From the UHGV virus genome UHGV-0336296: a DNA stretch of 12,662 nt; one strand, 5' to 3'. The notes under the pieces are model-generated. The model made no database searches, was not told the DNA's origin, and worked only from the letters and a program-made list of their open reading frames with translations. This DNA is from a virus. Positions within the stretch are counted from its first letter, which is position 1, and the number at the start of each line of letters is the position of its first letter. This document shows positions 1 through 12,662 of this stretch, piece after piece. Both the position numbers and the translations under genes were made by a program.

Positions 1-692
1 TCGTTGAGCAGGTGCAGAAAATGTGGCGTACCGGGAAACGCCTTTATGGTAACGCCAGCGACCTGGTCACCATGATCAAAACGCTTTCCGGTGTCAGCCT
101 CGGCAGCGATCTGCAACCGCGCGGCGTCTGGAAAACGGACAGTAAAACCACCGCCACGGCGACGCATCAGCGTAACGAGGTTGCCAGTACCCTTCGTACG
201 ACCGCAATCAGCGAAGCGGCGTATGCCGTCACCCGATTGCCTGCGCCAACAACTTCCGCGGTGATGCAGAATGCCGCAGTGGGGCAGTCAACAACACCTG
301 CGCAGAGCACTGGCTGGCCTTCCGTCACGCATCCGGCACTGAACAATGCACCGGCGGTGAAAAACACGGTTGACCTGCCAACGTGGGAAGAACTGACTGA
401 CATTCGCGACACACTGAATACGGCAATTGATAAGGAGTTGTCCCGTACAACCAGTGATGCGCTGTTTCTGGCACTGCGCCGGGTGAAAGCAGATCTGAAT
501 GCGGATATCAACACGCGCCTTGAACAGTCTGCACGGATCATTCAGCGCACACCGGATGAGGTTTTACCCGCGCTGGTGCTGGCGGCGACCTGGTTTGATA
601 ACGCGGCGCGTGATGCGGACATTATCCGGCGTAATGCCATTACGCATCCCGGCTTTGTGCCGGTGATCCCTCTGAAGGTGCCAGTGCAATGA
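1..692 (+). CDS. Phage tail-associated protein, C-terminal part (Mu gpN / DNA circularization protein-like by position); 5' end lies outside the window
   Basis: Open frame runs in from the window edge with no upstream stop. Stop TGA at 690-692 overlaps the ATG of the next baseplate gene (ATGA). Assignment is by position upstream of the hub gene, not by recognised motifs. Confidence 0.4.
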   Translation, partial: VEQVQKMWRTGKRLYGNASDLVTMIKTLSGVSLGSDLQPRGVWKTDSKTTATATHQRNEVASTLRTTAISEAAYAVTRLPAPTTSAVMQNAAVGQSTTPAQSTGWPSVTHPALNNAPAVKNTVDLPTWEELTDIRDTLNTAIDKELSRTTSDALFLALRRVKADLNADINTRLEQSARIIQRTPDEVLPALVLAATWFDNAARDADIIRRNAITHPGFVPVIPLKVPVQ

Positions 693-1768
693 ACGACAAT
701 GTCACGCTACGGGTAAATGGCCGGGAGTGGAATGGCTGGACATCGGTGCGCATCGGTGCCGGTGTTGAACGACTGGCGCGGGATTTCAGTGTGGAGATCA
801 CCCGCCAGTGGCCGGGTGATGAGGGTATCACCACGCTTCAGCCGCGCATTAAAAACGGTTCAAAAGTGGAGGTGCTGATTGGTGATGAGCTGGTGATCAC
901 CGGCTGGGTGGAGGCGACGCCCGTTCGTTACGATGCCCGTTCGGTCAGCACCGGTATTGCCGGACGCAGTCTGACCGCTGACCTGATTGATTGTGCAGCT
1001 GAACCGACACAGTTTAACGGACGATCACTGGTACAGATTGCGCAGGCGCTTGCTGCGCCCTTCGGCATTGAGGTGGTGAACAGCGGTGCGCCGTCGGGTG
1101 TTATTCCTGATGTCCAGCCTGATCACGGTGAAACGGTGATCGAGGTGATTAACAAAATACTCGGTCAGCAGCAGGCGCTGGCTTATGACGACCCGCACGG
1201 CAGGCTGGTGATTGGCGGTATTGGCTCAACGCGGGCACATACCGCGCTGGTACTCGGGGAAAACATCCTTTCCTGCGATACGGAGAAGAGTATCCGGGAG
1301 CGGTTTTCTGTTTACCAGGTGGCGGGGCAGCGTGCCGGAAACGACGATGATTTCGGTGAGGCCACCACAACTGCGCTGCGGGCCCGCACAGAGGACGCAT
1401 TTATTGCCCGTTACCGTCCGATGTATATCAGGCAGACAGGGCAGGCTACGGGGGCAGGCTGTATTGCGCGTGCTGACTTTGAAGCCCGACAACGGGCGGC
1501 GCGGACGGATGAAACCACCTATGTGGTGCAGGGCTGGCGACAGGGTAACGGTACGCTGTGGCAGCCCAACCAGCGGGTGATTGTCTTCGATCCGGTCTGT
1601 GGTTTCGACAATACCGAACTGCTTGTCTCGGAAGTCACGTTTACTCAGGACCAGAATGGCACCCTGACGGAAATCCGTGTCGGCCCACCTGATGCTTATC
1701 TGCCTGAACCCGAAGCCCCCGGCGCGCGGAAAAAGAAAAAAGCCAGAGTACAGGAGGACCCGTTCTGA
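689..1768 (+). CDS. Baseplate hub protein, Mu gp44 (gene P)-like
   Basis: 359 aa ORF, first of a string of overlapping, translationally coupled genes. Size and order match the Mu/e14 baseplate module. High GC and codon-consistent. Confidence 0.5.
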   Translation: MNDNVTLRVNGREWNGWTSVRIGAGVERLARDFSVEITRQWPGDEGITTLQPRIKNGSKVEVLIGDELVITGWVEATPVRYDARSVSTGIAGRSLTADLIDCAAEPTQFNGRSLVQIAQALAAPFGIEVVNSGAPSGVIPDVQPDHGETVIEVINKILGQQQALAYDDPHGRLVIGGIGSTRAHTALVLGENILSCDTEKSIRERFSVYQVAGQRAGNDDDFGEATTTALRARTEDAFIARYRPMYIRQTGQATGAGCIARADFEARQRAARTDETTYVVQGWRQGNGTLWQPNQRVIVFDPVCGFDNTELLVSEVTFTQDQNGTLTEIRVGPPDAYLPEPEAPGARKKKKARVQEDPF

Positions 1769-2316
1769 TGAAGGCGATTGAAGCCATGCAGCGACAACTC
1801 CTCGGCCTGATTGGGCGGGCGGTGGTGAAAAGCATCAGTGCCGCCACGAAATGTCAGACCGTGGATGTGTCCCTGATTGCCGGTGAACCCAAAGCCGGGG
1901 TTGAACATCTTGAACCCTACGGTTTTACCGCAAGGGCAAACAGCGGTGCGGAAGCGGTGGTGTTGTTTCCGGATGGTGACCGTTCTCATGCGGTGGTTGT
2001 TACGGTGTCGGACCGGCGCTACCGCCTGAAAGGGCTGCAGACGGGTGAGGTGGCTGTCTATGACGATCAGGGGCAGTCCGTGACGCTGACCCGGGAGGGG
2101 ATCGTGGTGGACGGTGCAGGTAAAACGATCACGTTTCGCAATTCACCTAAAGCACGTTTTGAAATGGACCTGGAAGTGACAGGACAGGTGAAAGACCTGT
2201 GCGACTCCAGCGGCACCACCATGTCAGCGATGCGGCTTGCCTATAACGGGCATCGTCACAGAGAGAACGATCAGGGCAGTAACACCGACAAACCTGATAA
2301 AGCGATGGAGGCATGA
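1768..2316 (+). CDS. Baseplate central spike/assembly protein, Mu gp45-like (gpV family)
   Basis: 182 aa ORF. Start overlaps the previous stop (TGATG). Size and position match Mu gp45. Confidence 0.5.
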   Translation: MKAIEAMQRQLLGLIGRAVVKSISAATKCQTVDVSLIAGEPKAGVEHLEPYGFTARANSGAEAVVLFPDGDRSHAVVVTVSDRRYRLKGLQTGEVAVYDDQGQSVTLTREGIVVDGAGKTITFRNSPKARFEMDLEVTGQVKDLCDSSGTTMSAMRLAYNGHRHRENDQGSNTDKPDKAMEA

Positions 2317-2741
2317 TGGAACTGTGGCTGACGGTGAACGGTAAACGCACCTGCGCCAGCGCACCGCTGGATCCGCTGACCCGCGCCGTGGTGATTTCCC
2401 TGTTTACCTGGCGGCGGGCGGAGCCTGATGACAACGCCGACGTCCCGATGGGATGGTGGGGGGATACCTGGCCTGCGGTACAGAATGACCGTTACGGCTC
2501 CCGACTGTGGCTGCTTCAGCGCAGCAAACTGACCAATCAGCTGGTGCAGACGGTAAGGGGGTATATCCGCGAATGCCTGCAATGGATGATTGATGACGGC
2601 GTGGTGTCCCGTATTGATCTGGATATCCGCCGCACCGGGATTAATGAACTGGGTAACAGTATCACTCTCTGGCGTCGTGACGGACCGGTAATGATTTCTT
2701 TTGATGATCTGTGGAGTGCGATAACGCATGGCGGACAGTGA
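2313..2741 (+). CDS. Baseplate protein, Mu gp46-like
   Basis: 142 aa ORF with ATGA overlap to the previous gene. Mu gp46 is about 143 aa at the same position. Confidence 0.5.
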   Translation: MMELWLTVNGKRTCASAPLDPLTRAVVISLFTWRRAEPDDNADVPMGWWGDTWPAVQNDRYGSRLWLLQRSKLTNQLVQTVRGYIRECLQWMIDDGVVSRIDLDIRRTGINELGNSITLWRRDGPVMISFDDLWSAITHGGQ

Positions 2742-3786
2742 ATTTCAACGCCCGACGCTGGCAGAAAATATCAGTATGCTCCGTAACGATTTATTCGCCA
2801 GGCTGGACGTCAGCGACACGCTCCGGCGCATGGATGAAGACGTGCGGGCAAAGGTGTATGCGGCGGCGCTGCATACGGTTTACGGTTACATCGATTATCT
2901 GGCAATGAACATGCTGCCTGACCTGTGCGATGAGTCCTGGCTGGCGCGACATGCTGCGATGAAACGGTGTCCGCGCAAGGGGGCCACGGCTGCCAGCGGG
3001 TATATGCGCTGGGAAGGTGTCAGCGATGGCCTGAAGGTGACCGCCGGGAGTGTTATTCAGCGCGATGACCTGGTTCAGTACACGGCAACTGCCGATGCAA
3101 CCAGCTCCGGTGGTGTCCTGCGCGTGCCGATCGCCTGCTCAAGTGCAGGTGCGGTCGGTAACGCTGACGACGGTACGGCATTAATCCTGGTCACGCCGGT
3201 GAATGGTCTGCCGTCTTCCGGTGTGGCTGATACCCTTACAGGCGGATTTGATACTGAAGAGCTGGAAACGTGGCGCGCCCGCGTCATTGAGCGGTATTAC
3301 TGGACGCCGCAGGGCGGGGCTGACGGGGACTATGTCGTCTGGGCTAAAGAAGTGCCCGGCATTACCCGCGCATGGACATACCGTCACTGGATGGGAACGG
3401 GAACTGTCGGTGTGATGATTGCCAGCAGTGACCTGATTAATCCCATTCCGGAAGAATCAACGGAAACGGCGGCAAGACAACATATCGAGCCACTGGCCCC
3501 GGTGGCAGGCTCTGATTTGTATGTATTCAGGCCGGTGGCGCATACGGTGGATTTTCATATCCGCGTGATGCCGGACACACCGGAAATACGGGCTGCCATC
3601 ACCGCGGAGTTGCGTTCGTTTCTTCTGCGTGATGGTTATCCGCAGGGAGAACTGAAGGTATCGCGTATCAGTGAGGCGATTTCCGGTGCGAACGGGGAAT
3701 ATAGCCATCAGTTGCTTGCACCGGCAGACAATATCTCCATTGCGAAAAATGAACTGGCGGTTCTGGGGACGATTTCATGGACGTGA
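2728..3786 (+). CDS. Baseplate J-like protein, Mu gp47-like
   Basis: 352 aa ORF overlapping the previous gene by 14 nt. Size and position match baseplate J-family proteins of Mu-like and e14-like tails. Confidence 0.55.
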
Positions 3787-4361
3787 CAAACGATGATTAC
3801 ATCCGTCTGTTGTCGGCACTGTTGCCCCCCGGTCCGGCGTGGTCAGCCGGCGATCCGGCGATTGCCGGTGCGGCACCGTCATTAACCCGCGTTCATCAGC
3901 GTGCGGATGCCCTGATGCGGGAGCTGGATCCGCGCACAACCACCGAACTGATAAACCGCTGGGAGCGTCTGTGCGGCCTGCCGGATGAATGTATTCCGGC
4001 AGGGACGCAGACCCTTCGCCAGCGTCAGCAACGGCTGGATGCGAAGGTTAATCTGGCGGGCGGCATCAATGAGGATTTTTACCTTGCACAGCTTGCTGCC
4101 CTGGGCAGACCAGACGCCACCATCACGCGATACGACAAAAGCACGTTCACCTGCTCATCTGCCTGTACTGACGCGGTGAATGCGCCGGAATGGCGGTATT
4201 ACTGGCAGGTCAACATGCCAGCCGCCACCAACACCACCTGGATGACATGTGGCGATCCCTGTGATTCCGCACTGCGTATCTGGGGCGACACCGTAGTCGA
4301 GTGTGTGCTTAACAAACTCTGCCCGTCGCATACCTACGTAATTTTTAAATATCCGGAGTAA
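3777..4361 (+). CDS. Tail protein, Mu gp48 / YmfQ-like (DUF2313 family)
   Basis: 194 aa ORF overlapping the previous gene by 10 nt, directly upstream of the tail fibre gene as in e14 and Mu. Confidence 0.5.
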
Positions 4362-4364
4362 TCC

Positions 4365-5150
4365 ATGCATCGTATAGACACGAAAACCGCGCAGAAGGAT
4401 AAGTTCGGCGCGGGTAAGAACGGTTTTACCCGTGGTAACCCCCAGACCGGCACGCCTGCCACCGATCTGGATGATGACTACTTTGACATGTTGCAGGAGG
4501 AGCTTTGCAGCGTTGTGGAGGCATCCGGTGCCAGCCTGGAGAAGGGGCGGCATGACCAGCTGCTTACCGCGCTTCGTGCGCTGCTGTTAAGCCGCAAGAA
4601 TCCGTTTGGCGATATCAAATCGGATGGCACGGTGAAAACAGCTCTCGAAAACCTTGGTTTGGGAGAAGGTTCGGCATTACCCGTTGGCGTGCCTGTTCCG
4701 TGGCCTTCCGCCACTCCGCCAACAGGCTGGCTGAAATGCAACGGGGCGGCTTTTTCTGCTGAAGAATACCCGGAACTGGCAAAGGTTTACCCGACAAATA
4801 AATTGCCTGATTTACGCGGTGAGTTTATTCGTGGCTGGGATGATGGAAGAGGGATTGATACTAACCGTAGCTTGCTTTCGTCACAGGGAGATACCATTCG
4901 GAATATAACAGGATTTATAAATGAAGTTAAAGGCACCATTGATACAGCAACTTTCAGGTTACAGACTGGTACTGGTGCTTTTGCCTTAGCATCTCAAGCT
5001 ACGCGAAATATCTATAATAACCTAGGCACATATGAAACAAAAAATACCCCTTACACAGGATTCAGTTTTGATGCATCCAGGGTTGTACCAACAGCATCAG
5101 AGAATCGCCCTCGAAACATTGCATTTAACTATATCGTGAGAGCAGCATAA
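4365..5150 (+). CDS. Side tail fibre protein: constant N-terminal part (to about 4653) fused to an invertible C-terminal receptor-binding cassette
   Basis: 261 aa. GGAG RBS upstream. Contains a tail-collar-like motif ([21 protein letters not shown]). The left crossover site lies inside the coding sequence at 4642-4667. GC drops sharply after about 4860. Confidence 0.75.
4642..4667. repeat. Left invertase crossover site (hix/gix/pix-like, 26 bp)
   Basis: ctctcgaaaacc-tt-ggtttgggagaa: AAACC-NN-GGTTT core with dyad symmetry, as in Hin/Gin/Cin/Pin recombination sites. Confidence 0.7.
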
Positions 5151-5752
5151 TGGATAAAGCAATATTAAATAGTGAGCTTATTGCTACAAAGTCGGGGGAT
5201 ATTACCGTTTATAACTATGATAGTGAGACGCAGGAATATATTTCAGCATCAACTGAATATCTTGCCATTGGTGTCGGTATTCCTGCATATTCCTGTTTAG
5301 ATGCCCCTGGCACACATAAGGCGGGTTATGCTATCTGTCGTTCTGCAAATTTTAACTCATGGGAATATGTGCCAGACCATCGCGGTGAAATCGTCTATAG
5401 CACCAAAACGGGAGAGTCAAAAGAAATCACAGCTCCGGGTGATTACCCTGATAATACAACCACTATCGCCCCGTTAACGCCATACGATAAATGGGATGGT
5501 GAGAAATGGGTGACGGATACCGAAGCACAGCATAGCGCCGCAGTAGATGCAGCAGAAGCACAGCGCCAGTCACTGATTGATACTGCAATGGCTTCAATCA
5601 GTCTGATTCAGCTGAAATTGCAGGCCGGACGTAAACTGACGCAGGCAGAAACAACCAGCCTTAACGCTGTGCTGGATTACATTGACGCGGTGACGGCAAC
5701 TGATACCAGCACCGCGCCTGATGTCATCTGGCCTGAACTGCCGGAGGCGTAG
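5150..5752 (+). CDS. Tail fibre assembly protein (Tfa)
   Basis: 200 aa. Start overlaps the fibre stop (TAATG). C-terminus LDYIDAVTATDTSTAPDVIWPELP is the conserved Tfa C-terminal signature, shared with the opposite-strand copy. Confidence 0.75.
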   Translation: MDKAILNSELIATKSGDITVYNYDSETQEYISASTEYLAIGVGIPAYSCLDAPGTHKAGYAICRSANFNSWEYVPDHRGEIVYSTKTGESKEITAPGDYPDNTTTIAPLTPYDKWDGEKWVTDTEAQHSAAVDAAEAQRQSLIDTAMASISLIQLKLQAGRKLTQAETTSLNAVLDYIDAVTATDTSTAPDVIWPELPEA

Positions 5753-6167
5753 GCCATTCAATATCTGGCGCACCGGAAGTATCGACCAGCTCCAGTGCGT
5801 CCAGATAATCCAGCCATAAATTATATTGTTCCAGCTCGTCACCTTTCAGACGACCAATAGCAGCTTTGCCAGGCCACTGATGGGTATTGATGTAGGTATT
5901 GACTTCTGAAACCAAAGATATTTTTTTCATTTCAGCCGCCAGCACCTCATCCTCTTTTGAAGGCGGCGGGGAATTAATCCATATTGGCCGTCCTGAACTG
6001 TCAGCGCCAATTTCTTTCCCTTCTGGATGCAGCCCAAGAAATTGCTCATATGTTTCTCTGGTAATTTCAATAACATCATCAGGAAGCGTTCCCGCATCCT
6101 CATATTCTGGAAACAATTCTTGCAGATAAAAACTTTTACTTCCGGGTGAAAAGAATACTGAGTTCAT
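5724..6167 (-). CDS. Alternative tail fibre assembly protein (Tfa'), silent cassette in this orientation
   Basis: 147 aa on the - strand, converging on tfa and overlapping it by 29 bp. C-terminus WLDYLDALELVDTSGAPDIEWPTPP matches the Tfa signature. Confidence 0.7.
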   Translation of the reverse strand: MNSVFFSPGSKSFYLQELFPEYEDAGTLPDDVIEITRETYEQFLGLHPEGKEIGADSSGRPIWINSPPPSKEDEVLAAEMKKISLVSEVNTYINTHQWPGKAAIGRLKGDELEQYNLWLDYLDALELVDTSGAPDIEWPTPPAVQAR

Positions 6168-6169
6168 TC

Positions 6170-6624
6170 TTACCGTCCAATGATTAACGCTGAGACGCTG
6201 GTATCTGAAGGAAAGGCTGCATTCAGTGGTTTGTCGACTTTGAACACAATCGTATTATTCCCCCTGACAGCGGCAAAAGAACAAACCGCCGTCGCGTATG
6301 AACCTGTAATATTACTGGATACACCACCATAAGCTGTTGTTGATACCAGAGGGATAACGCCCAGCACCTTATTAGGAAATACAAAGGGCAATGTGGCTGT
6401 GGCAATATAAGACTTATTAGAACCTGTAATGGCATAAGCATTATCAGTCATTCCATTCATCGCCACTGGACCGCTTATACTTACAGTAACCATCTGAATG
6501 ATTAGCCCGTCAGGTTGACGAATCACAAAATTTCCATTGCCACCAGTAACCGTCCAGAAAGACATATCAGGGATTTGGTTTTCCCCGTTGCCCACATTCC
6601 GTTTTGCCGCTTCTCCCAAACCAA
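6170..6624 (-). CDS. Alternative tail fibre C-terminal cassette (Stf'), no start of its own; expressed only after inversion fuses it to the constant N-terminus
   Basis: - strand frame is open from the right crossover site to a stop at 6170-6172, 2 nt upstream of the tfa' start. The sequence at the crossover encodes GLGE in both the expressed and the silent cassette. Confidence 0.65.
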
Positions 6625-6636
6625 CGTTTATGAAAA
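6611..6636. repeat. Right invertase crossover site (26 bp), inverted relative to the left site
   Basis: ttctcccaaacc-aa-cgtttatgaaaa. The inner half is the exact reverse complement of the inner half of the left site. Central AA is complementary to the left site's TT. Lies about 55 bp upstream of the invertase start. Confidence 0.7.
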
Positions 6637-6690
6637 TACAGAAATAACGAGCAAATGGCATCATTCCTGCTTTTGTCAGGGAGATCTACC

Positions 6691-7242
6691 ATGCTTATTG
6701 GCTATGTACGTGTGTCAACAAATGACCAGAACACAGATCTACAACGTAATGCGCTGAACTGTGCAGGATGTGAGCTGATTTTTGAAGACAAGATAAGCGG
6801 TACAAAGTCCGACAGACCAGGACTGAAAAAGCTGCTCAGGACATTATCGGCAGGTGACACGCTGGTGGTCTGGAAACTGGATCGACTCGGTCGCAGCATG
6901 CGGCATCTTGTCGTTTTGGTGGAGGAGCTTCGGGAAAAGGGTATTAACTTTCGCAGCCTGACCGACAGCATAGATACGTCTTCACCAATGGGACGCTTTT
7001 TCTTCCATGTCATGGGCGCACTTGCCGAAATGGAAAGGGAGCTGATAGTCGAACGTACCAGGGCGGGATTGGCTGCGGCTCGTGAAGAAGGGCGAATAGG
7101 TGGGCGTCGATCAAAGCTAACTGATGAACAGTGGGCGCAGGCAGGAAGGTTGGTTGCAGCAGGTGAATCACGACAGCGTGTGGCATTAATTTACGATGTT
7201 GGGATATCGACGCTATATAAAAAATTTCCGGCAACCAGGTAA
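6691..7242 (+). CDS. pin: Site-specific DNA invertase, serine recombinase of the Pin/Hin/Gin/Cin family
   Basis: 184 aa from the ATG at 6691. N-terminus MLIGYVRVSTNDQ carries the catalytic serine motif. C-terminal helix-turn-helix (GISTLYKKF). Adjacent to the invertible fibre segment. Confidence 0.9.
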   Translation: MLIGYVRVSTNDQNTDLQRNALNCAGCELIFEDKISGTKSDRPGLKKLLRTLSAGDTLVVWKLDRLGRSMRHLVVLVEELREKGINFRSLTDSIDTSSPMGRFFFHVMGALAEMERELIVERTRAGLAAAREEGRIGGRRSKLTDEQWAQAGRLVAAGESRQRVALIYDVGISTLYKKFPATR

Positions 7243-7310
7243 ATCATTGAGTTATGCGACGATGATGACTGATGGTGGCTAATGCCATTGATCTCCGTTT
7301 AAATAAAAAC

Positions 7311-7330
7311 TACTGTATATAATATCAGTA
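7311..7330 (+). promoter_or_regulatory. LexA operator (SOS box) overlapping the umuDC promoter -10 region
   Basis: TACTG-TATATAATAT-CAGTA is a perfect CTG-N10-CAG palindrome, 20 bp upstream of the umuD start. A TATAAT hexamer sits at 7318-7323 inside the box. Confidence 0.8.
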
Positions 7331-7349
7331 TTAATTGACGGTGATTATG

Positions 7350-7769
7350 ATGCAGTTTTTCACTCCCTCCGGGTTGCGTGCAGTGCAGCCGCTTCCACTC
7401 TATGGCGATCTTGTACCCTGTGGTTTCCCAAGCCCTGCTCAGGACTACGTTGAACAGCGTATCGATCTTAACGAGCTACTGATACAACACCCCAGCGCCA
7501 CGTACTTCGTTAAGGCATCTGGTGACTCGATGATTGATGCCGGGATCGGCGAAGGCGATTTACTGGTAGTGGACAGTTCACGCAAGGCAGAGCACGGCGA
7601 TATCGTTATTGCTGCGGTGGACGGGGAATTTACCGTTAAGCGCCTACAGTTATGGCCAACTGTCCAGCTTAACCCTGAAAACCGCGCCTGGTCGCCTATC
7701 ATCATCGGGAGCGAAGAAACGCTCGATGTTTTTGGTGTGGTGACGTTCATCGTGAAATCGACGGGTTGA
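7350..7769 (+). CDS. umuD: Translesion DNA polymerase V accessory subunit UmuD (LexA-like self-cleaving S24 peptidase)
   Basis: 139 aa from the ATG at 7350. Cys-Gly cleavage site (LVPCGFPSP), Ser nucleophile motif (ASGDSMID), and Lys in FTVKRL. Sits directly behind the SOS box. Confidence 0.85.
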
Positions 7770-7771
7770 TC

Positions 7772-9040
7772 ATGTACGCGTTGTGTGATGTGAACTCGTT
7801 CTATGCCTCCTGTGAAACTGTATTTCGCCCGGATCTCAAAGGTAGGCCGGTTGTGGTGCTTTCCAACAATGACGGTTGTGTTATTGCCCGCAGCACAGAG
7901 GCAAAGAAACTGGGTATCAAAATGGGTGAGCCGTACTTCAGGCAGAAGGACTTTTTCCGGCGCCATGGGGTGGTGTGCTTCAGCAGCAACTATGAGCTGT
8001 ATGCGGATATGTCTAACCGGGTGATGACCACGCTGGAAGAAATGTCGCCGCGCTGTGAAATTTACTCGATAGACGAGGCATTTTGTGACCTCACTGGTGT
8101 ACGTAACTGTCGTGATCTGACTGATTTTGGCCGTGAAATCCGTGCTACTGTTCTGCAGCGAACGCATCTGACAGTGGGTGTTGGCATTGCCCAGACCAAG
8201 ACGCTGGCCAAGCTGGCCAACCACGCGGCCAAACAATGGCAGCGGCAGACGGGCGGGGTGGTAGACCTGTCCAGTGTCGATCGCCAGCGCAAACTGATGG
8301 CCGCGCTGCCGGTTGATGAAGTCAGGGGCATCGGTCGGCGTATTTCGAAAAAACTGGAGGCGATGGGGATCAAGACCGTACTGCAACTCGCTGATACGGA
8401 CATCCGTTTTATCCGTAAACATTTTAATGTCGTGCTGGAGCGAACGGTGCGTGAGTTACGCGGAGAACCCTGCCTGGCACTGGAAGAATTCGCGCCAGTG
8501 AAACAGGAAATTATCTGTTCCCGCTCTTTTAGCGGTCGTATCACGGAGTATGAAGAGATGCGCCAGGCGATCTGCAGCTATGCCTCGCGGGCGGCAGAGA
8601 AACTGCGTGGCGAGCACCAGTATTGCCGTTTTATCTCGGCGTTTGTGAAGACCAGCCCGTTCGCACTGAACGAGCCCTATTATGGCAATAATGCCTCCGT
8701 GAAGCTTCTGACGCCTACGCAGGACAGTCGGGATATCATCAGTGCAGCCATCCGCTGTCTGGACGCCATATGGCAAGACGGATATCGGTATCAGAAAGCC
8801 GGGGTGATGTTGGGTGATTTCTTCAGTCAGGGCGTGGCCCAGCTCAACTTGTTCGATGATAACGCGCCGCGCCCGGGCAGTGAGAAACTGATGGAAGTGC
8901 TGGATCACCTCAATGCCAAAGGCGGGAGGGGGACGCTGTATTTTGCAGGACAGGGTATCCAGCAGCAGTGGCAGATGAAACGGGAAATGCTTTCTCCACG
9001 TTACACCACCCGATTCTCTGATCTACCCGTTGTCAGGTGA
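7772..9040 (+). CDS. umuC: Translesion DNA polymerase V catalytic subunit UmuC (Y-family polymerase)
   Basis: 422 aa from the ATG at 7772. N-terminus [13 protein letters not shown] and [11 protein letters not shown] are Y-family catalytic motifs. Starts 2 nt after the umuD stop. Confidence 0.9.
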
Positions 9041-9117: not shown

Positions 9118-9156
9118 TACTAAGTCTCAGTTATACAATTCGGCTGAGACTTAGTA
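9118..9156. repeat. 13 bp perfect inverted repeat (stem-loop, 13 nt spacer) between the convergent umuC and KAP NTPase genes
   Basis: tactaagtctcag (9118-9130) and ctgagacttagta (9144-9156) are exact reverse complements. Located at the GC-content break. No clear U-tract on either side. Confidence 0.55.
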
Positions 9157-9163
9157 TGCCAAT

Positions 9164-10912
9164 TTATAGGCAAGAAATTGCGTGTCTTACTGTATTGTTT
9201 AAATCATATATCGCGCCATATTTAAAACTTTCTTGCTTACCTATGAAATAAATGTCAAGTTTTTGATTGAGGTATATAAGGCGCTGCTTTTCATTTGTGG
9301 CAAACTGAGATATGTTACTAATTCTATAATTACTTCTTAAAAAAGCGTTGAATTGCTCTATATCTTTAATGCTCCATTCTTTTAAAATGCACTTGGTCAA
9401 AAATGGTGCGCCAAGTACTTCTAGCGTTTTATAGTTTCCCATGGGATCTAATTTGAGTAATAAGTTAACATCAAATAAAGCCCAACCATCAGTTTCAATA
9501 ATTTCCTTAATTGCCTTTAAGTTTTTTCTCTTTTCAATATTATTATGACGGCCTGATAATATTGAAAATATAAGTTTCCCATCATCAAAGCCACTAGTCC
9601 AACTACTGATTGGATTGTTGTTATGAAATTCAAAGTAAGTAATAATGTCCTCGTCACTAAATTCGAGTGATTTAGAACTCATGAACTGCAATGTTAGTAA
9701 TGATGATTTTGGAAGATATTTATGATAAGTCAAATATTCATAGTTCTGAACCGCCCTAAGCCATTGGTGCAAATCACATGGTATTGTTCTAGAAATTAAA
9801 CCAATAATCGTGGGGAAAAATTCTTTTTCATCTGTCTCCTGTAGTTCTGGTCGAGTTGAAACTGCAATATCAATTGTACTTAAAGGTGTTGGCACATAAA
9901 AAACATCGTCCAATATATCATAAAGAGAAACATGACCACTGTAGTAATTTTTAAGGTGAATATTAATTTTATAATTGTGTAATGTAGACAAAAGTCTCGG
10001 TTCATGTGGATTTTCATCGCTGCTGGAATTTTGGGGTGGGATATGCTGGATGCTGTCAATGATCAGTTCGTCCATGGATTTGTTATGGATAAATAACAAG
10101 ATAAAATATGACAAAATTGAGCTTAGTATGGTTTTAGAGGCGATTTTCCACTCTAGTTCAGGGTGGTTTTCTGCGTGTAAATATAATGGAAGTGCAGTAT
10201 TTAAACACCTCATTAAAATTCTTATGTTAACTATGTTATGGTATGATATTATTTCTTCGAAAATCATTTTGTCTTCAGTGGGGAAGTACTGTAGTTTTTC
10301 TTCAATTATTCTCATATCTAATATGTCGCGAGGGTTTGGGTTGTAATGAAGTGAATCAGAAATAATTTTTTCTTTATGTTCTAATGACAGGTGGGATTCG
10401 GCAGATGTATTAGATATAACAATAAAATCCAAACTAGAGATTTTTGAGGTTGAATATAACGAATGACAATAAGTTAGTATTTCATTGGCCAGTGAGGGAG
10501 TGCTTAATCGCTCAATGTCATCTAATATAAATATGCCACTGAGTTTGGAGAGTATGTTCTCTCTTACACTTGAACCAATGGAACTGAACACACCATTAAG
10601 CACATTGGCACTAGCGGGAGAACCACTGCTTACACTACCCAAACCAGAAATAGTATCTAACCCAGACTTAAGAGTGTCTATATCTTGAAGATAGTAGCAG
10701 TCAATAATCTTTGCTTTGAAATCTGCAAGAGACTTAACGCCTAGTAATGAAATATAATAAAACACATTAAGATCATAAAAACGAGGAAATACATTTTTAA
10801 TAAAAAAAGTTTTACCTGTTCCCCATTTTCCATCAATAAAAATAAGTCCATCTCTTTCGGATTGTAGAAGATGAACTATTTTTACAATCAAATTGCTATT
10901 AGAGTTTTCCAT
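9164..10912 (-). CDS. KAP-family P-loop NTPase (PifA-like); candidate abortive infection / anti-phage protein
   Basis: 582 aa. Walker A GKWGTGKT (the GxWGxGK[ST] form typical of KAP NTPases) near the N-terminus. Walker B-like IFILDDIERL (hhhhDD-DR). Very AT-rich single-gene insert between GC-rich neighbours. Confidence 0.7.
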   Translation of the reverse strand: MENSNSNLIVKIVHLLQSERDGLIFIDGKWGTGKTFFIKNVFPRFYDLNVFYYISLLGVKSLADFKAKIIDCYYLQDIDTLKSGLDTISGLGSVSSGSPASANVLNGVFSSIGSSVRENILSKLSGIFILDDIERLSTPSLANEILTYCHSLYSTSKISSLDFIVISNTSAESHLSLEHKEKIISDSLHYNPNPRDILDMRIIEEKLQYFPTEDKMIFEEIISYHNIVNIRILMRCLNTALPLYLHAENHPELEWKIASKTILSSILSYFILLFIHNKSMDELIIDSIQHIPPQNSSSDENPHEPRLLSTLHNYKINIHLKNYYSGHVSLYDILDDVFYVPTPLSTIDIAVSTRPELQETDEKEFFPTIIGLISRTIPCDLHQWLRAVQNYEYLTYHKYLPKSSLLTLQFMSSKSLEFSDEDIITYFEFHNNNPISSWTSGFDDGKLIFSILSGRHNNIEKRKNLKAIKEIIETDGWALFDVNLLLKLDPMGNYKTLEVLGAPFLTKCILKEWSIKDIEQFNAFLRSNYRISNISQFATNEKQRLIYLNQKLDIYFIGKQESFKYGAIYDLNNTVRHAISCL

Positions 10913-10989: not shown

Positions 10990-11580
10990 TTATTCAATTG
11001 AAACAATAAGATATTCACCTTGATTTTTCGCATTACCCATCGCTCGCGTAACTGCATGCCAGATAAACTTGTCAGCTTGCACGGCACCGTAGTCGGTAAT
11101 CGCTTCTGCTTCCTTGCCTCGGCGTCTTGGCGCATCCCATTCCCGGGCTGCCTCCGGTGACAATACAAGTGGCTGTCGGTCGTGTATATCAACCAAGCCT
11201 TCATCGGCCGCAGACGTCACTATTAAAAAACCTTCGGCCTCGTCACTACGTTCGAAGGGGCGCTGCCGATTGCCGCCATGAATATTGGCTACCCATCAGT
11301 TCGGTGAATGAAGTAGGGTTGTTTTTTTGCTATCTTCGGTCTTGTCGAGTAGGGCACCGAAGTTACCTTCAACGCCCCCTCTAAGAACCGTGCGTGAGAG
11401 TTTCCAGCTCACACGGCTCAAGCCTTATCAAACACCACTGTGAAATGATGCGGCAGGTGCAGTCAGACGCGTGGTTCGGGATCGGATATAATCTGTCCAA
11501 TCCGTGTCATATGGATTAAGTGCAGATGCGACGAGTCTGTGACGGACAATTTTGACGCTCTGAGCGTGAACCAGCCTCAG
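10990..11580 (-). pseudogene. Decayed yedK-like SRAP (SOS response-associated peptidase, DUF159) gene
   Basis: C-terminal frame reads LVDIHDRQPLVLSPEAAREW...NAKNQGE, matching the SRAP C-terminal region. Upstream sequence continues the match (PIFMAAIGS, PFERSDEAEGFLIV) only across a 1-nt frameshift and an in-frame TAG. No intact ORF longer than 78 aa. N-terminal boundary is uncertain. Confidence 0.55.
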
Positions 11581-11631: not shown

Positions 11632-12465
11632 TTACTGCTGCCACCAAGCATATAGATCTAGACCTTTGGTAATTACACCTAAGAAAATCCCTAAAACTAT
11701 TAATCCAGTCACTAATGGGTGTTCTTTGAGCCTCATCGTTAACCAATATGGATGCCAGCTTCTTGGCCAAAACCATTTATTGTTAGTTTTGAGAGTACGA
11801 TCATGAATCCGCTCAGCAATATTACAGAGTATGTCGACCTTTCGTAATGTAGACATTTCTAGCTCTCTATACTTACCTTTGACATATGCCTCGGCTTCCT
11901 CAGCGCCGGCTAAGACATCTTTATCAGCGATACCATTTTTTTCAACAAGAGCTAACATTCTACCTGCACGGCCACTTTTGGCGGTATGCCCAATATAGCT
12001 TCGTCCATATATAGAAACGGCAGCTCTCGCTAAATCGAGTTTTCTGTCATCAGTAAGTATAAAGGGCTCGCCACCTAGGACTGAAAATCTATGCTGTAAG
12101 GCCTGAAATCCGTAATTGTTATCTCGCATGTTCCAATGCAGAAATGTGCATTGTGCGTATCTTTTCAGGAATGTAAAGTAGTTATCTAATAGATGATGCT
12201 CAAGGATATCGAGATTTTTTTCATCTGAAACATCAAGACCTAATAATTCTGCGGATCTATTAAGAGCCCAATGATCTGTTTGCCCACTGCCTAAATTTCT
12301 GACAGCAATAGAGGTGATCCTTGTGGATTTACCGCCCACAGCATCATAAAAAGATTCACATGAATAATGGACAACGTAGCATTGATGCGCATTTGCAAAA
12401 CATTTTTCGATAAAACCAATGTACTCGCTGCGATCTCTAATCTGTTGTTTGATGGAAGATGACAT
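11632..12465 (-). CDS. Hypothetical protein with a C-terminal transmembrane anchor; function unknown
   Basis: 277 aa. ATG at 12465 preceded by a GAGGT RBS. C-terminal hydrophobic helix LVTGLIVLGIFLGVITKGL. AT-rich compared with the phage and umuDC parts. No family recognised. Confidence 0.6.
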   Translation of the reverse strand: MSSSIKQQIRDRSEYIGFIEKCFANAHQCYVVHYSCESFYDAVGGKSTRITSIAVRNLGSGQTDHWALNRSAELLGLDVSDEKNLDILEHHLLDNYFTFLKRYAQCTFLHWNMRDNNYGFQALQHRFSVLGGEPFILTDDRKLDLARAAVSIYGRSYIGHTAKSGRAGRMLALVEKNGIADKDVLAGAEEAEAYVKGKYRELEMSTLRKVDILCNIAERIHDRTLKTNNKWFWPRSWHPYWLTMRLKEHPLVTGLIVLGIFLGVITKGLDLYAWWQQ

Positions 12466-12480
12466 CAGTGAACCTCATGC

Positions 12481-12510
12481 AAAAAAAAACCCGCAAAGTG
12501 CGGGCTTTTT
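12481..12510 (-). terminator. Rho-independent terminator (bidirectional hairpin, stronger on the - strand)
   Basis: 6 bp GC-rich stem cccgca/tgcggg with a 3 nt loop at 12490-12504. Followed by T9 on the - strand (12481-12489) and T5 on the + strand (12506-12510). Confidence 0.65.
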
Positions 12511-12637
12511 AAATCACTCAGGAGCCGCGGCTCCTTTGCGTATCCTTTTTTGTCTCCTCACCGTCTGGTCGGTGTCCTGCTGAGACTGCTAACTTCCTGT
12601 TTTTGTTGGTGTTGTCCTTACACCGTCCAATCATGAT

Positions 12638-12662
12638 TGGTGGAGCTGGCGGGAGTTGAACC
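12638..12662 (-). ncRNA. ssrA: 3' terminal fragment of tmRNA (ssrA) tRNA-like domain, or a duplicated att copy of it; gene body would lie beyond the window end
   Basis: - strand reads GGTTCAACTCCCGCC-AGCTCC-A-CCA: T-loop TTCAACT, T-stem CCCGC, acceptor 3' strand CAGCTCC, discriminator A, CCA. This matches the tmRNA 3' end as recalled. Only 25 nt are visible. Confidence 0.55.

Follow-up and report, generated by a model that had tools for sequence, protein, structure and literature searches.

The window analyzed, the whole 12,662-nt stretch of the virus genome UHGV-0336296, contains the end of a phage tail module, a DNA invertase gene, an umuDC operon, three further genes or gene remnants and the 3' end of ssrA. 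Up to the tail fiber gene, the sequence showed 97.5 to 98% nucleotide identity to the tail and baseplate genes of SfII, SfIV, SfV, and SfI. Homology to SfV-type phages breaks at about position 4668, that is, at the left crossover site of an invertible tail-fiber segment (4649 to 4668), whose inverted-repeat partner, the right crossover site (6610 to 6629), lies just upstream of pin; the two 20-nt arms are 95% complementary and 1941 nt apart. The pin gene, encoding a serine DNA invertase of the pin/hin type, occupies positions 6691 to 7242 of the plus strand, with its stop codon at 7240 to 7242. Its longest open reading frame extends from 6655 to 7242, but RefSeq annotation of relatives points to the ATG at 6691 as the likely start, yielding a protein of 183 amino acids with Pfam Resolvase (173 bits) and HTH_7 (48 bits) domains and a match to the DNA invertase family phrog_125 (324 bits).

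The two genes behind pin, both on the plus strand, are intact. umuD (7350 to 7769), preceded by a Shine-Dalgarno sequence (GGTGA, 7340 to 7344), encodes a protein of 139 amino acids that matched NCBIfam PRK10276 over its full length (162.5 bits, with a cutoff of 110), as well as Pfam Peptidase_S24 (101.7 bits) and the UmuD-like family phrog_811. UmuD has the Cys24-Gly25 cleavage site as well as Ser60 and Lys97, G25, S60, and K97 being invariant columns of the alignment, and FTVKR aligned with E. coli UmuD. After a gap of 2 nt, umuC (7772 to 9040) encodes the 422-amino-acid Y-family catalytic subunit of DNA polymerase V (pol V), which matched NCBIfam PRK03609 across residues 1 to 422 of 422 (864.3 bits, with a cutoff of 431) and contains the Pfam domains IMS, IMS_C, and DUF4113, the carboxylates D6, D101, and E102 as invariant alignment columns, and the beta-clamp motif QLNLF (read as AQLNLFDD). 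The PHROGs collection already has phage UmuD and UmuC families. HumD, the precleaved UmuD' type of phage P1, was considered as an identity for the smaller protein and rejected, since its score against NF051876 (104.3 bits) fell below the cutoff of 120 and the protein keeps a full N-terminal arm with the cleavage site.

The sequence-only reading of this DNA had placed pin, a LexA box, umuD, and umuC, and all four were recovered at the positions it gave. It had also described the operon as starting close behind pin, in agreement with the distances measured from the pin stop codon: 46 bp to the putative -35 box, 69 bp to the start of the operator, and 108 bp to the umuD ATG. Its description of the LexA box as perfect and 20 bp upstream of umuD held for the distance, with 19 nt separating the operator end from the ATG at 7350, but not for the perfection, given a right half that reads TCAG instead of ACAG and a match of 16 of 20 positions to the palindromic consensus. 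The operator, TACTGTATATAATATCAGTA (7311 to 7330, plus strand), was identified by motif search and alignment and is the sole zero-mismatch match to TACTGT-N9-CAGTA within the window. It presents the invariant CTG-N10-CAG and an AT-rich spacer, and it matches the E. coli umuDC box at 18 of 20 positions. On a heterology index derived from 25 E. coli operators, which provides an approximate ranking and not a published scale, the window operator scored 4.8 and that of E. coli umuDC 1.24; the value of 4.8 lies inside the range of those 25 operators, and the best sites of 200 shuffled windows had a 5th percentile of 9.1. A LexA box lies 15 to 24 bp before the ATG in nearly all of the 77 other umuD loci compared, and this conserved position argues that the box upstream of umuD is homologous to the others and no chance match. 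It is weaker than the box in 71 of the 77 loci, so that tight repression of umuDC is not assured. By the operator criterion, umuDC would belong to the LexA (SOS) regulon, and control by LexA is predicted. The weak operator is the one mild oddity of this umuDC locus.

A putative sigma-70 promoter of umuDC (7288 to 7316, plus strand) consists of TTGATC at 7288 to 7293 as the -35 box, a 17-nt spacer, and TACTGT at 7311 to 7316 as the -10 box, which would overlap the operator. This promoter was inferred by homology only: TTGATC and the LexA box are in register with the regions upstream of umuD in the E. coli chromosome and in phages, and a consensus scanner called neither a sigma-70 promoter nor an intrinsic terminator in 7243 to 7350. 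Downstream of umuC the scanner found no T-run terminator, and a hairpin with a 15-bp stem (9118 to 9156; fold of -34.7 kcal/mol, z = -3.3), also devoid of a T-run, lies between umuC and the convergent KAP-like gene and may serve as a transcription stop after umuC.

That convergent gene (9164 to 10912, minus strand) encodes a KAP-like P-loop NTPase of 582 amino acids (Pfam KAP_NTPase, 28.9 bits). It has a low GC content (31 to 35%) and matched PADLOC PDC-S49 (7.8e-14) and phrog_4740; its product is a candidate single-gene antiphage protein, which would represent a separate cargo insertion. Beyond it lies a remnant of a gene for an SRAP (YedK-like, SOS response-associated peptidase; 10993 to 11327, minus strand), recognized by tblastn and by RefSeq pseudogene annotation. 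Only the C-terminal half is left, with an internal stop and a frameshift, and tblastn gave 70 to 72% identity to intact prophage SRAPs over residues 112 to 222. The last gene (11632 to 12465, minus strand) encodes a 277-amino-acid phage-family protein of unknown function (phrog_8766, 186 bits), for which no match was found in Pfam, NCBIfam, or PADLOC; PADLOC likewise returned no defense-system match to UmuD or UmuC. The stretch from 12481 to 12637 contains a bidirectional terminator (12481 to 12510) followed by a conserved phage att arm, as defined by the attR/attL alignment, and is followed by the 3' end of ssrA, the tmRNA gene, which constitutes attR (12638 to 12662, minus strand). The window ends 25 nt into ssrA, identified by an ARAGORN tmRNA call in L002 and the matching sequence.

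Comparison with complete genomes supported the assignment of the window to an SfV-like myovirus prophage in E. coli ssrA, of which it forms the right end. Full 41-kb prophages with the same right end were found in two complete genomes, NZ_CP062811 and NZ_CP053731, spanning from a partial copy of the ssrA 3' end on the integrase side to ssrA itself. Imperfect direct repeats of about 155 bp, revealed by the attL/attR alignment, bound the prophage, with umuDC inside; the right copy comprises the att arm and the ssrA 3' end, and the repeat reaches 118 bp beyond ssrA. A search for an internal ssrA or att copy between pin and ssrA found none. By eye, TGATGGTGGC at 7270 to 7279 weakly resembles the ssrA end; it failed a search allowing three mismatches. 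A search for flanking repeats, direct or inverted, that would mark umuDC as a transposable cassette yielded only short, low-identity chance pairs. The enclosure of umuDC by the ssrA att repeats, with the core copy at ycgN/dsbB, agrees with the earlier proposal that these genes occupy a mobile context and not a core one. The question of whether the prophage or island has its own mutagenic polymerase was likewise answered in the affirmative. Among 5,426 complete E. coli genomes, the pin-umuD junction was confined to 3, each of them with a second umuC-matching place in its chromosome.

We consider it highly probable (about 0.85 for the reading as a whole) that the window contains an intact pol V operon complete with promoter and LexA operator, and that this operon fills a variable slot between pin and the right att site as accessory cargo (a "moron") of a temperate SfV-like myovirus residing in ssrA. 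In accordance with the definition of a moron, umuDC lies inside an att-bounded prophage with conserved phage DNA on both sides. Sister prophages have pin on the left and a 180-bp att arm on the right in common, and the cargo between them differs; the same arm also forms the right terminus of SfV-like prophages that sit at other chromosomal sites and differ in cargo. Thus, other cargo follows pinE in L011, L013, and L014, the interval from pin to att being occupied by GIY-YIG, Dcm, and type II restriction enzyme genes in L013 and by a KAP NTPase gene in L014. Core synteny of the junction in all relatives, free of mobile boundaries, was not found. The adjacency of pin and umuD is also seen in genomes of Citrobacter, Dryocola, Enterobacter, and "BS0013", and it is without mechanistic meaning: the conserved phage genes end with pin, and the cargo slot follows. 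Accessory genes placed after the final tail or invertase gene, ahead of att, are familiar from e14 (pin-mcrA) and SfV (gtr genes after the tail genes), where the cargo consists of restriction enzyme and O-antigen modification genes, respectively, and not of a polymerase.

The same right end might instead have arisen if the block comprising umuDC, the KAP-like gene, the SRAP remnant, and the gene for the 277-amino-acid protein were what is left of an older ssrA-integrated island, abutting or fused to the SfV-like prophage and not excised or packaged with the phage. The GC content does shift abruptly (tail genes, 57 to 60%; umuDC, about 53%; KAP gene, 31 to 35%), SRAP is a pseudogene, the cargo region of NZ_CP062811 has suffered an IS3 insertion, the relative SZQ1 keeps the block despite the deletion of most of its prophage, and the extension of the direct repeat 118 bp beyond ssrA suggests successive integrations. 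However, an island with its own history at ssrA fits poorly with the lack of any ssrA- or att-like sequence between pin and ssrA, and the right arm, shared with SfV-like prophages located elsewhere with other cargo, brackets the block with phage DNA. In addition, phages isolated from sewage (Oslo and CobraSix) carry umuDC in the same slot, and at least four other genera have umuD next to pin. An island origin is considered unlikely. The cargo region is nonetheless patchy in composition and partly decayed, and this patchiness, together with the SRAP pseudogene, the IS3 insertion in one relative, and the deletion remnant in SZQ1, suggests that this prophage may be defective, its right end persisting as an island.

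Decay of the neighboring cargo, by pseudogene formation in SRAP and IS insertion, together with an operator that departs from the family norm, could also mean that umuDC is itself a silent or decaying passenger without function. This is very improbable, given two full-length open reading frames in which all catalytic, cleavage, and clamp-binding residues are kept, dN/dS values relative to the Citrobacter copy of 0.09 for umuC and 0.17 for umuD, and amino acid identities of 100% for UmuD and 99.5 to 99.8% for UmuC in three unrelated strains. For its part, the possibility that the genes are the ordinary core umuDC of the host, with a prophage integrated beside them, can be regarded as refuted. 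The window genes certainly resemble the chromosomal E. coli operon, with the same layout, protein lengths (139 and 422 amino acids), Cys-Gly site, and catalytic residues, a LexA box 20 bp before the ATG and an aligned TTGATC -35 box, and their UmuC, 86 to 88% identical to the core protein, belongs to the UmuC subfamily proper and not with MucB or SamB. However, UmuD is only 73% identical and the nucleotide identity only about 75 to 77%, umuD and umuC are separated by 2 nt whereas the chromosomal genes overlap, and the operator has 2 differences in 20 positions and a lower predicted strength. Moreover, other E. coli records place core umuDC between ycgN/hlyE' and dsbB-nhaB, whereas the window copy is found at ssrA inside att repeats, and the rarity of the junction and the second umuC-matching place in each carrier are incompatible with a core gene.

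The phylogeny of UmuC, proposed earlier as a check, also separated the window copy from the core one. In a neighbor-joining tree, built without support values and with MucB and SamB as the plasmid-borne homologues, window UmuC grouped with prophage-context copies, with the Escherichia core clade separate and MucB and SamB outside. Window UmuC shares 95% identity with a Citrobacter copy likewise situated behind pin and 90% with a Klebsiella prophage copy. The plasmid and ICE systems mucAB (R46/pKM101), samAB (pSLT), impAB, and rumAB (SXT/R391) are also mobile, LexA-boxed UmuD/UmuC pairs, and such homologues provide an extra mutagenic pol V on mobile elements (PMC13062779). Membership in the mucAB/samAB subfamily was rejected because of low identity (UmuC, 55% to MucB and 64% to SamB; UmuD, 44% and 48% to their accessory subunits), a Cys-Gly cleavage site in UmuD instead of the Ala-Gly of the MucAB/SamAB accessory subunits, and the position of these proteins outside the UmuC clade. 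The Acinetobacter baumannii prophages CP5 and CP9 contain damage-induced error-prone polymerases with an SRAP gene (PMC3978071); they resemble the window in prophage location and SRAP association but belong to a distant lineage (window UmuC is 35 to 40% identical to Acinetobacter phage UmuC) and are regulated by UmuDAb rather than LexA. The presence of SOS-controlled pol V homologues on mobile elements and prophages is an already established principle, and the window locus is a genuine but ordinary case.

The closest parallels were found among phages. Klebsiella phage ST846-OXA48phi9.2, Salmonella phage vB_SosS_Oslo, Enterobacter phage vB_EclS_CobraSix, Escherichia phage PHB10, and Cronobacter phage ENT39118 carry umuDC with UmuC 76 to 90% identical to that of the window, in all five directly after the tail-fiber genes and before att/int, as in the window slot. 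The novelty that the sequence-only reading implied does not hold, since several of these genomes (Oslo, CobraSix, PHB10, and ENT39118) are already published. A LexA box precedes umuD in Oslo, PHB10, phi9.2, and ENT39118, as in the window; in phi9.2 umuDC follows a hin fragment, and SRAP lies near umuDC in phi9.2 and PHB10. Unlike the window, with its SfV-like contractile-tail backbone at ssrA, Oslo, CobraSix, PHB10, and ENT39118 have no SfV-like backbone, and three of the four have lambda J-type tail genes. The window further differs from these phages in the TCAG right half of its operator and in the KAP NTPase gene between umuC and the SRAP remnant. A GE3-type SfV-like prophage at tRNA-Pro (NZ_CP012376) has the same backbone as the window, with umuDC after pinE and SRAP adjoining att, but its integration site is different, its SRAP is intact, and its umuD is separated from pin by DUF3037, HipA-like, and DinI genes (order from pin to the tRNA, DUF3037-HipA-DinI-umuDC-SRAP); its umuDC allele is 85% identical to the window one in amino acids and 75% in nucleotides. 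Phage umuDC copies are often accompanied by an SRAP peptidase or DinI, and umuDC, often with one of these, is a recurrent cargo of temperate enterobacterial phages at one genome slot.

Under the cargo reading, LexA bound to the box overlapping the -10 would keep umuDC off in the lysogen. DNA damage would activate RecA, leading to LexA self-cleavage and transcription of umuDC; UmuD would then cleave itself at Cys24-Gly25 to UmuD', and UmuD'2C would carry out error-prone translesion synthesis, so that the lysogen would possess a second pol V in addition to the core one. Since related prophages are annotated with a LexA-family repressor (ymfK), prophage induction probably responds to the same RecA signal, in which case pol V would be expressed as the phage is induced. 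A broader proposal, which we regard as tentative and more doubtful than not, is that umuDC, usually with SRAP and sometimes with DinI, forms a mobile "DNA-damage tolerance" module that moves between unrelated temperate phages of Enterobacteriaceae, both sipho- and myoviruses, settles in the slot between tail fiber and att, and is selected for acting when SOS also induces the phage; in the present element, the phage copy, under its weakened operator (TCAG half-site), would be expressed sooner or with more leakage than the host copy, which is tightly repressed. If so, the benefit of the module might lie in replication of damaged phage or host templates, or in higher survival and mutation supply of the lysogen.

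An extra pol V operon open to horizontal transfer can increase the mutagenesis that DNA damage induces in lysogens, including antibiotic-induced resistance mutations, and the carriers in this case are pig-associated and wastewater strains of E. coli. The recurrent slot is useful both for annotation and for studying how prophages contribute to evolvability.

The ORFs of the window, together with family searches and matches in databases, show that it is the right-hand end of a temperate, SfV-like phage whose contractile tail is of the Mu type. The baseplate and tail genes (12 to 4361) showed nucleotide identities of 97.5 to 98% to the Shigella phages SfII, SfIV, SfV and SfI. Next come a collar-domain tail-fibre gene (4365-5150), the gene of its assembly chaperone (5150-5752) and, inverted on the minus strand, a further chaperone and fibre C-terminus (5724-6664). 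Inverted repeats of 20 nt (AAACCTTGGTTTGGGAGAAG and its complement, at 4649-4668 and 6610-6629) bound a 2-kb invertible segment with alternative chaperones and fibre C-termini. This segment is served by pin, a serine invertase gene (likely start at 6691, stop at 7240-7242) with Resolvase and HTH_7 domains (phrog_125).

Homology with other SfV/e14-like prophages broke off near position 7231, where pin ends, and returned only in the last 180 bp (12481-12660), a terminator plus att arm. The cargo between these limits is composite, amounts to 5.2 kb and contains an intact umuDC operon with its operator (GC content of umuDC, ∼53%). Other SfV/e14-like prophages carried different genes in this slot: a GIY-YIG protein, a Dcm methylase and a type II restriction enzyme in the prophage near paoD (L013), a large KAP NTPase in the one near corA (L014), and a hypothetical protein with an AraC regulator in a further one (L011). 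The prophage of Escherichia coli GE3 (L012; NZ_CP012376), located at a tRNA-Pro gene, has the pin anchor only; its cargo between pinE and the tRNA gene (13309-17638 of L012) has the order DUF3037, a HipA-family kinase, DinI, umuD, umuC and SRAP (a YedK-like SOS response-associated peptidase). The SRAP gene is intact there, and this umuDC is an independent second allele at that position. The 180-bp arm also forms the right end of the prophages near paoD and corA, which are not ssrA sites, suggesting either that the phage itself carries an ssrA-like arm or that one integration followed another.

The synteny comparison proposed in the sequence-only reading located the pin-umuDC junction in only 3 of 5,426 complete Escherichia coli genomes, adjoining ssrA in all three. 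NZ_CP062811 and NZ_CP053731 each have a complete ∼41-kb prophage whose right end it forms and which comprises, in order, the integrase, ymfK (by annotation a LexA-family repressor), replication genes, Q, lysis genes, terminase, head, tail, pin, umuDC, a KAP-like NTPase, a SRAP pseudogene, a 277-aa protein and ssrA. Strain SZQ1 carries a deletion remnant that retains the integrase side and the stretch from tail fibre to ssrA. At its integrase side the complete prophage repeats the ssrA 3' end (∼35 nt) together with 118 bp of downstream sequence; the resulting imperfect direct repeat of ∼155 bp (window, 12481-12662; related full prophage L004, 11703-11888), unusually long for att, brackets the whole prophage. 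No further ssrA-like sequence was found elsewhere in the window. The proposal that umuDC is next to, or part of, a mobile tail module rather than in a conserved core context is supported: the operon lies inside these repeats, and the core umuDC locus of other E. coli records, located between ycgN/hlyE' and dsbB-nhaB, shared a nucleotide identity of only ∼75 to 77% with the window copy. A second umuC-matching place was present in the chromosome of each of the three carriers, and the question of whether the prophage brings its own mutagenic polymerase genes can be answered affirmatively. The adjacency to pin is a matter of genome architecture, not of functional coupling.

Both genes of the operon are complete. 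The product of umuD (7350-7769; 139 aa) matched the NCBIfam model of the pol V autoproteolytic subunit (162.5 bits; cut-off, 110) and kept the Cys24-Gly25 cleavage site and the Ser60/Lys97 dyad. That of umuC (7772-9040; 422 aa) matched the UmuC model end to end (864 bits; cut-off, 431), with IMS, IMS_C and DUF4113 domains, residues D6, D101 and E102, and the QLNLF clamp motif kept. Compared with the closest relative, a Citrobacter copy, dN/dS was 0.09 for umuC and 0.17 for umuD. By these sequence criteria the operon looks functional.

The LexA box, the 20-mer TACTGTATATAATATCAGTA at 7311-7330, was the sole exact match to TACTGT-N9-CAGTA in the window, where the looser pattern CTGT-N8-ACAG, with one mismatch allowed, showed no enrichment by itself. 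It had been described as a perfect box 20 bp upstream of umuD; the location stands, with the umuD ATG (7350) 19 nt past its end and a ribosome-binding site (GGTGA) at 7340-7344, but the box is imperfect, its right half being TCAG. As had been read, umuDC directly follows pin; the spacer between pin and umuD is 107 bp. On an approximate heterology index, built on 25 E. coli operators with the umuDC box excluded, the window box scored 4.8, mid-range among real operators, versus 1.24 for the E. coli umuDC box; the best sites of 200 shuffled windows had a 5th percentile of 9.1. Nearly all of 77 other umuD loci have an equivalent box 15 to 24 bp upstream of the start codon, and by the same approximate index the window operator was weaker than those of 71 of them. 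The TCAG right half-site, rare among umuD operators, was seen again in two Klebsiella loci (TACTGTATATATAATCAGTA and TACTGTATATATATTCAGTA).

A consensus promoter scanner made no call for the umuDC promoter, which was placed by alignment: TTGATC (7288-7293) aligns with an identical hexamer upstream of umuD in the E. coli chromosome and several phage copies. Since TTGATC precedes TACTGT by 17 nt, the operator probably overlaps the -10 element of this putative promoter. According to established pol V biology, LexA would keep umuDC off until RecA filaments appear, UmuD would next be cleaved to UmuD', and UmuD'2C would then carry out error-prone lesion bypass. Related full prophages have a LexA-family (S24) repressor by annotation, and this signal would probably set off phage induction as well.

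Downstream of the operon, where umuC and the KAP-like gene converge, there is a hairpin (9118-9156; z = -3.3 versus shuffles) whose 15-bp stem is perfect and which lacks a T-run. The KAP-like gene (9164-10912, minus strand; phrog_4740) encodes a P-loop NTPase of 582 aa matching the PADLOC candidate defence family PDC-S49, has a GC content of 31 to 35% versus 53 to 60% around it, and is inserted between umuC and a SRAP remnant (10993-11327, minus strand). This remnant covers only residues ∼112 to 222, the C-terminal half, carries a frameshift as well as an internal stop, and lacks the catalytic N-terminus. The 277-aa protein adjoining attR (11632-12465, minus strand) belongs to a phage family (phrog_8766, 186 bits), had no match in Pfam, NCBIfam or PADLOC, and was 100% identical across the three carrier strains. 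Another KAP NTPase gene lies between Q and the lysis genes of L004.

By tblastn, identities to the window UmuC were 90% for the Klebsiella prophage ST846-OXA48phi9.2 (phi9.2), 86% for Enterobacter phage CobraSix, 85% for both Salmonella phage Oslo and Escherichia phage PHB10, 76% for Cronobacter phage ENT39118, 86 to 88% for core E. coli UmuC, 64% for SamB (pSLT) and 55% for MucB (R46). All five phages have umuDC right after the tail-fibre genes and ahead of att/int, preceded in phi9.2 by a hin fragment, and both phi9.2 and PHB10 have an intact SRAP gene in the vicinity. As Oslo and CobraSix are sewage isolates, these two phages, at least, package umuDC. The ORF upstream of umuC in CobraSix (5696-6001 of its locus) is only 306 nt long, and no match to UmuD reached a query coverage of 50%; this phage may have a truncated or divergent UmuD. 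In the UmuC phylogeny suggested by the earlier reading, a neighbour-joining tree without support values, the window grouped with prophage-context copies, Escherichia core copies formed a separate clade, and MucB and SamB fell outside.

A wider survey, in which one genome per species was scanned, yielded 80 loci, five of them in an Escherichia-type core context. The best match was Citrobacter sp. Awk 4 (UmuC, 95% identical), with the order invertible tail-fibre segment, pin and umuDC. Its nucleotide homology with the window runs from 7308, 3 bases ahead of the LexA box, to 9038, 2 bases short of the umuC end, so that what the two loci share is the operon with its operator. Adjacency of pin and umuD was also found in Dryocola boscaweniae, Enterobacter sp. 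KBR-315C3 and 'Bacterium BS0013', and in Raoultella pin and umuC are ∼3 kb apart. An intact SRAP gene lay within a few kilobases of umuDC at 20 of the 80 loci, and DinI at 10.

Prophage- or mobile-element-borne umuDC is, as a kind of feature, already well known. PHROGs families exist for UmuD-like proteins (phrog_811) and UmuC-like polymerases (phrog_1268); DNA-damage-induced prophage error-prone polymerases lie beside a SRAP gene in Acinetobacter baumannii (PMC3978071); a gene neighbourhood of SRAP with UmuCD, and SRAP genes in prophages, were described by Aravind and colleagues (PMC3765255); ICEs and megaplasmids of pathogens are recognised carriers of umuDC-like genes (PMC13062779); and an Enterobacter phage satellite with a umuDC cassette is a recent addition (PMC13612085). 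In the literature, we found no paper on this particular prophage of SfV type at ssrA or on the recurrent pin-umuDC arrangement. Two points are mildly unusual: the LexA operator is weaker than is common, and unrelated temperate phages repeatedly have umuDC with SRAP or DinI at this one slot. The pin-umuD spacer is ∼180 bp in other genera versus 107 bp in the window, and the motif AAATTTACAAAA, absent from the window spacer, occurs soon after the pin stop in three of those loci (L088, L029 and L063), with the related AAAATTTACATTT in a fourth (L019).
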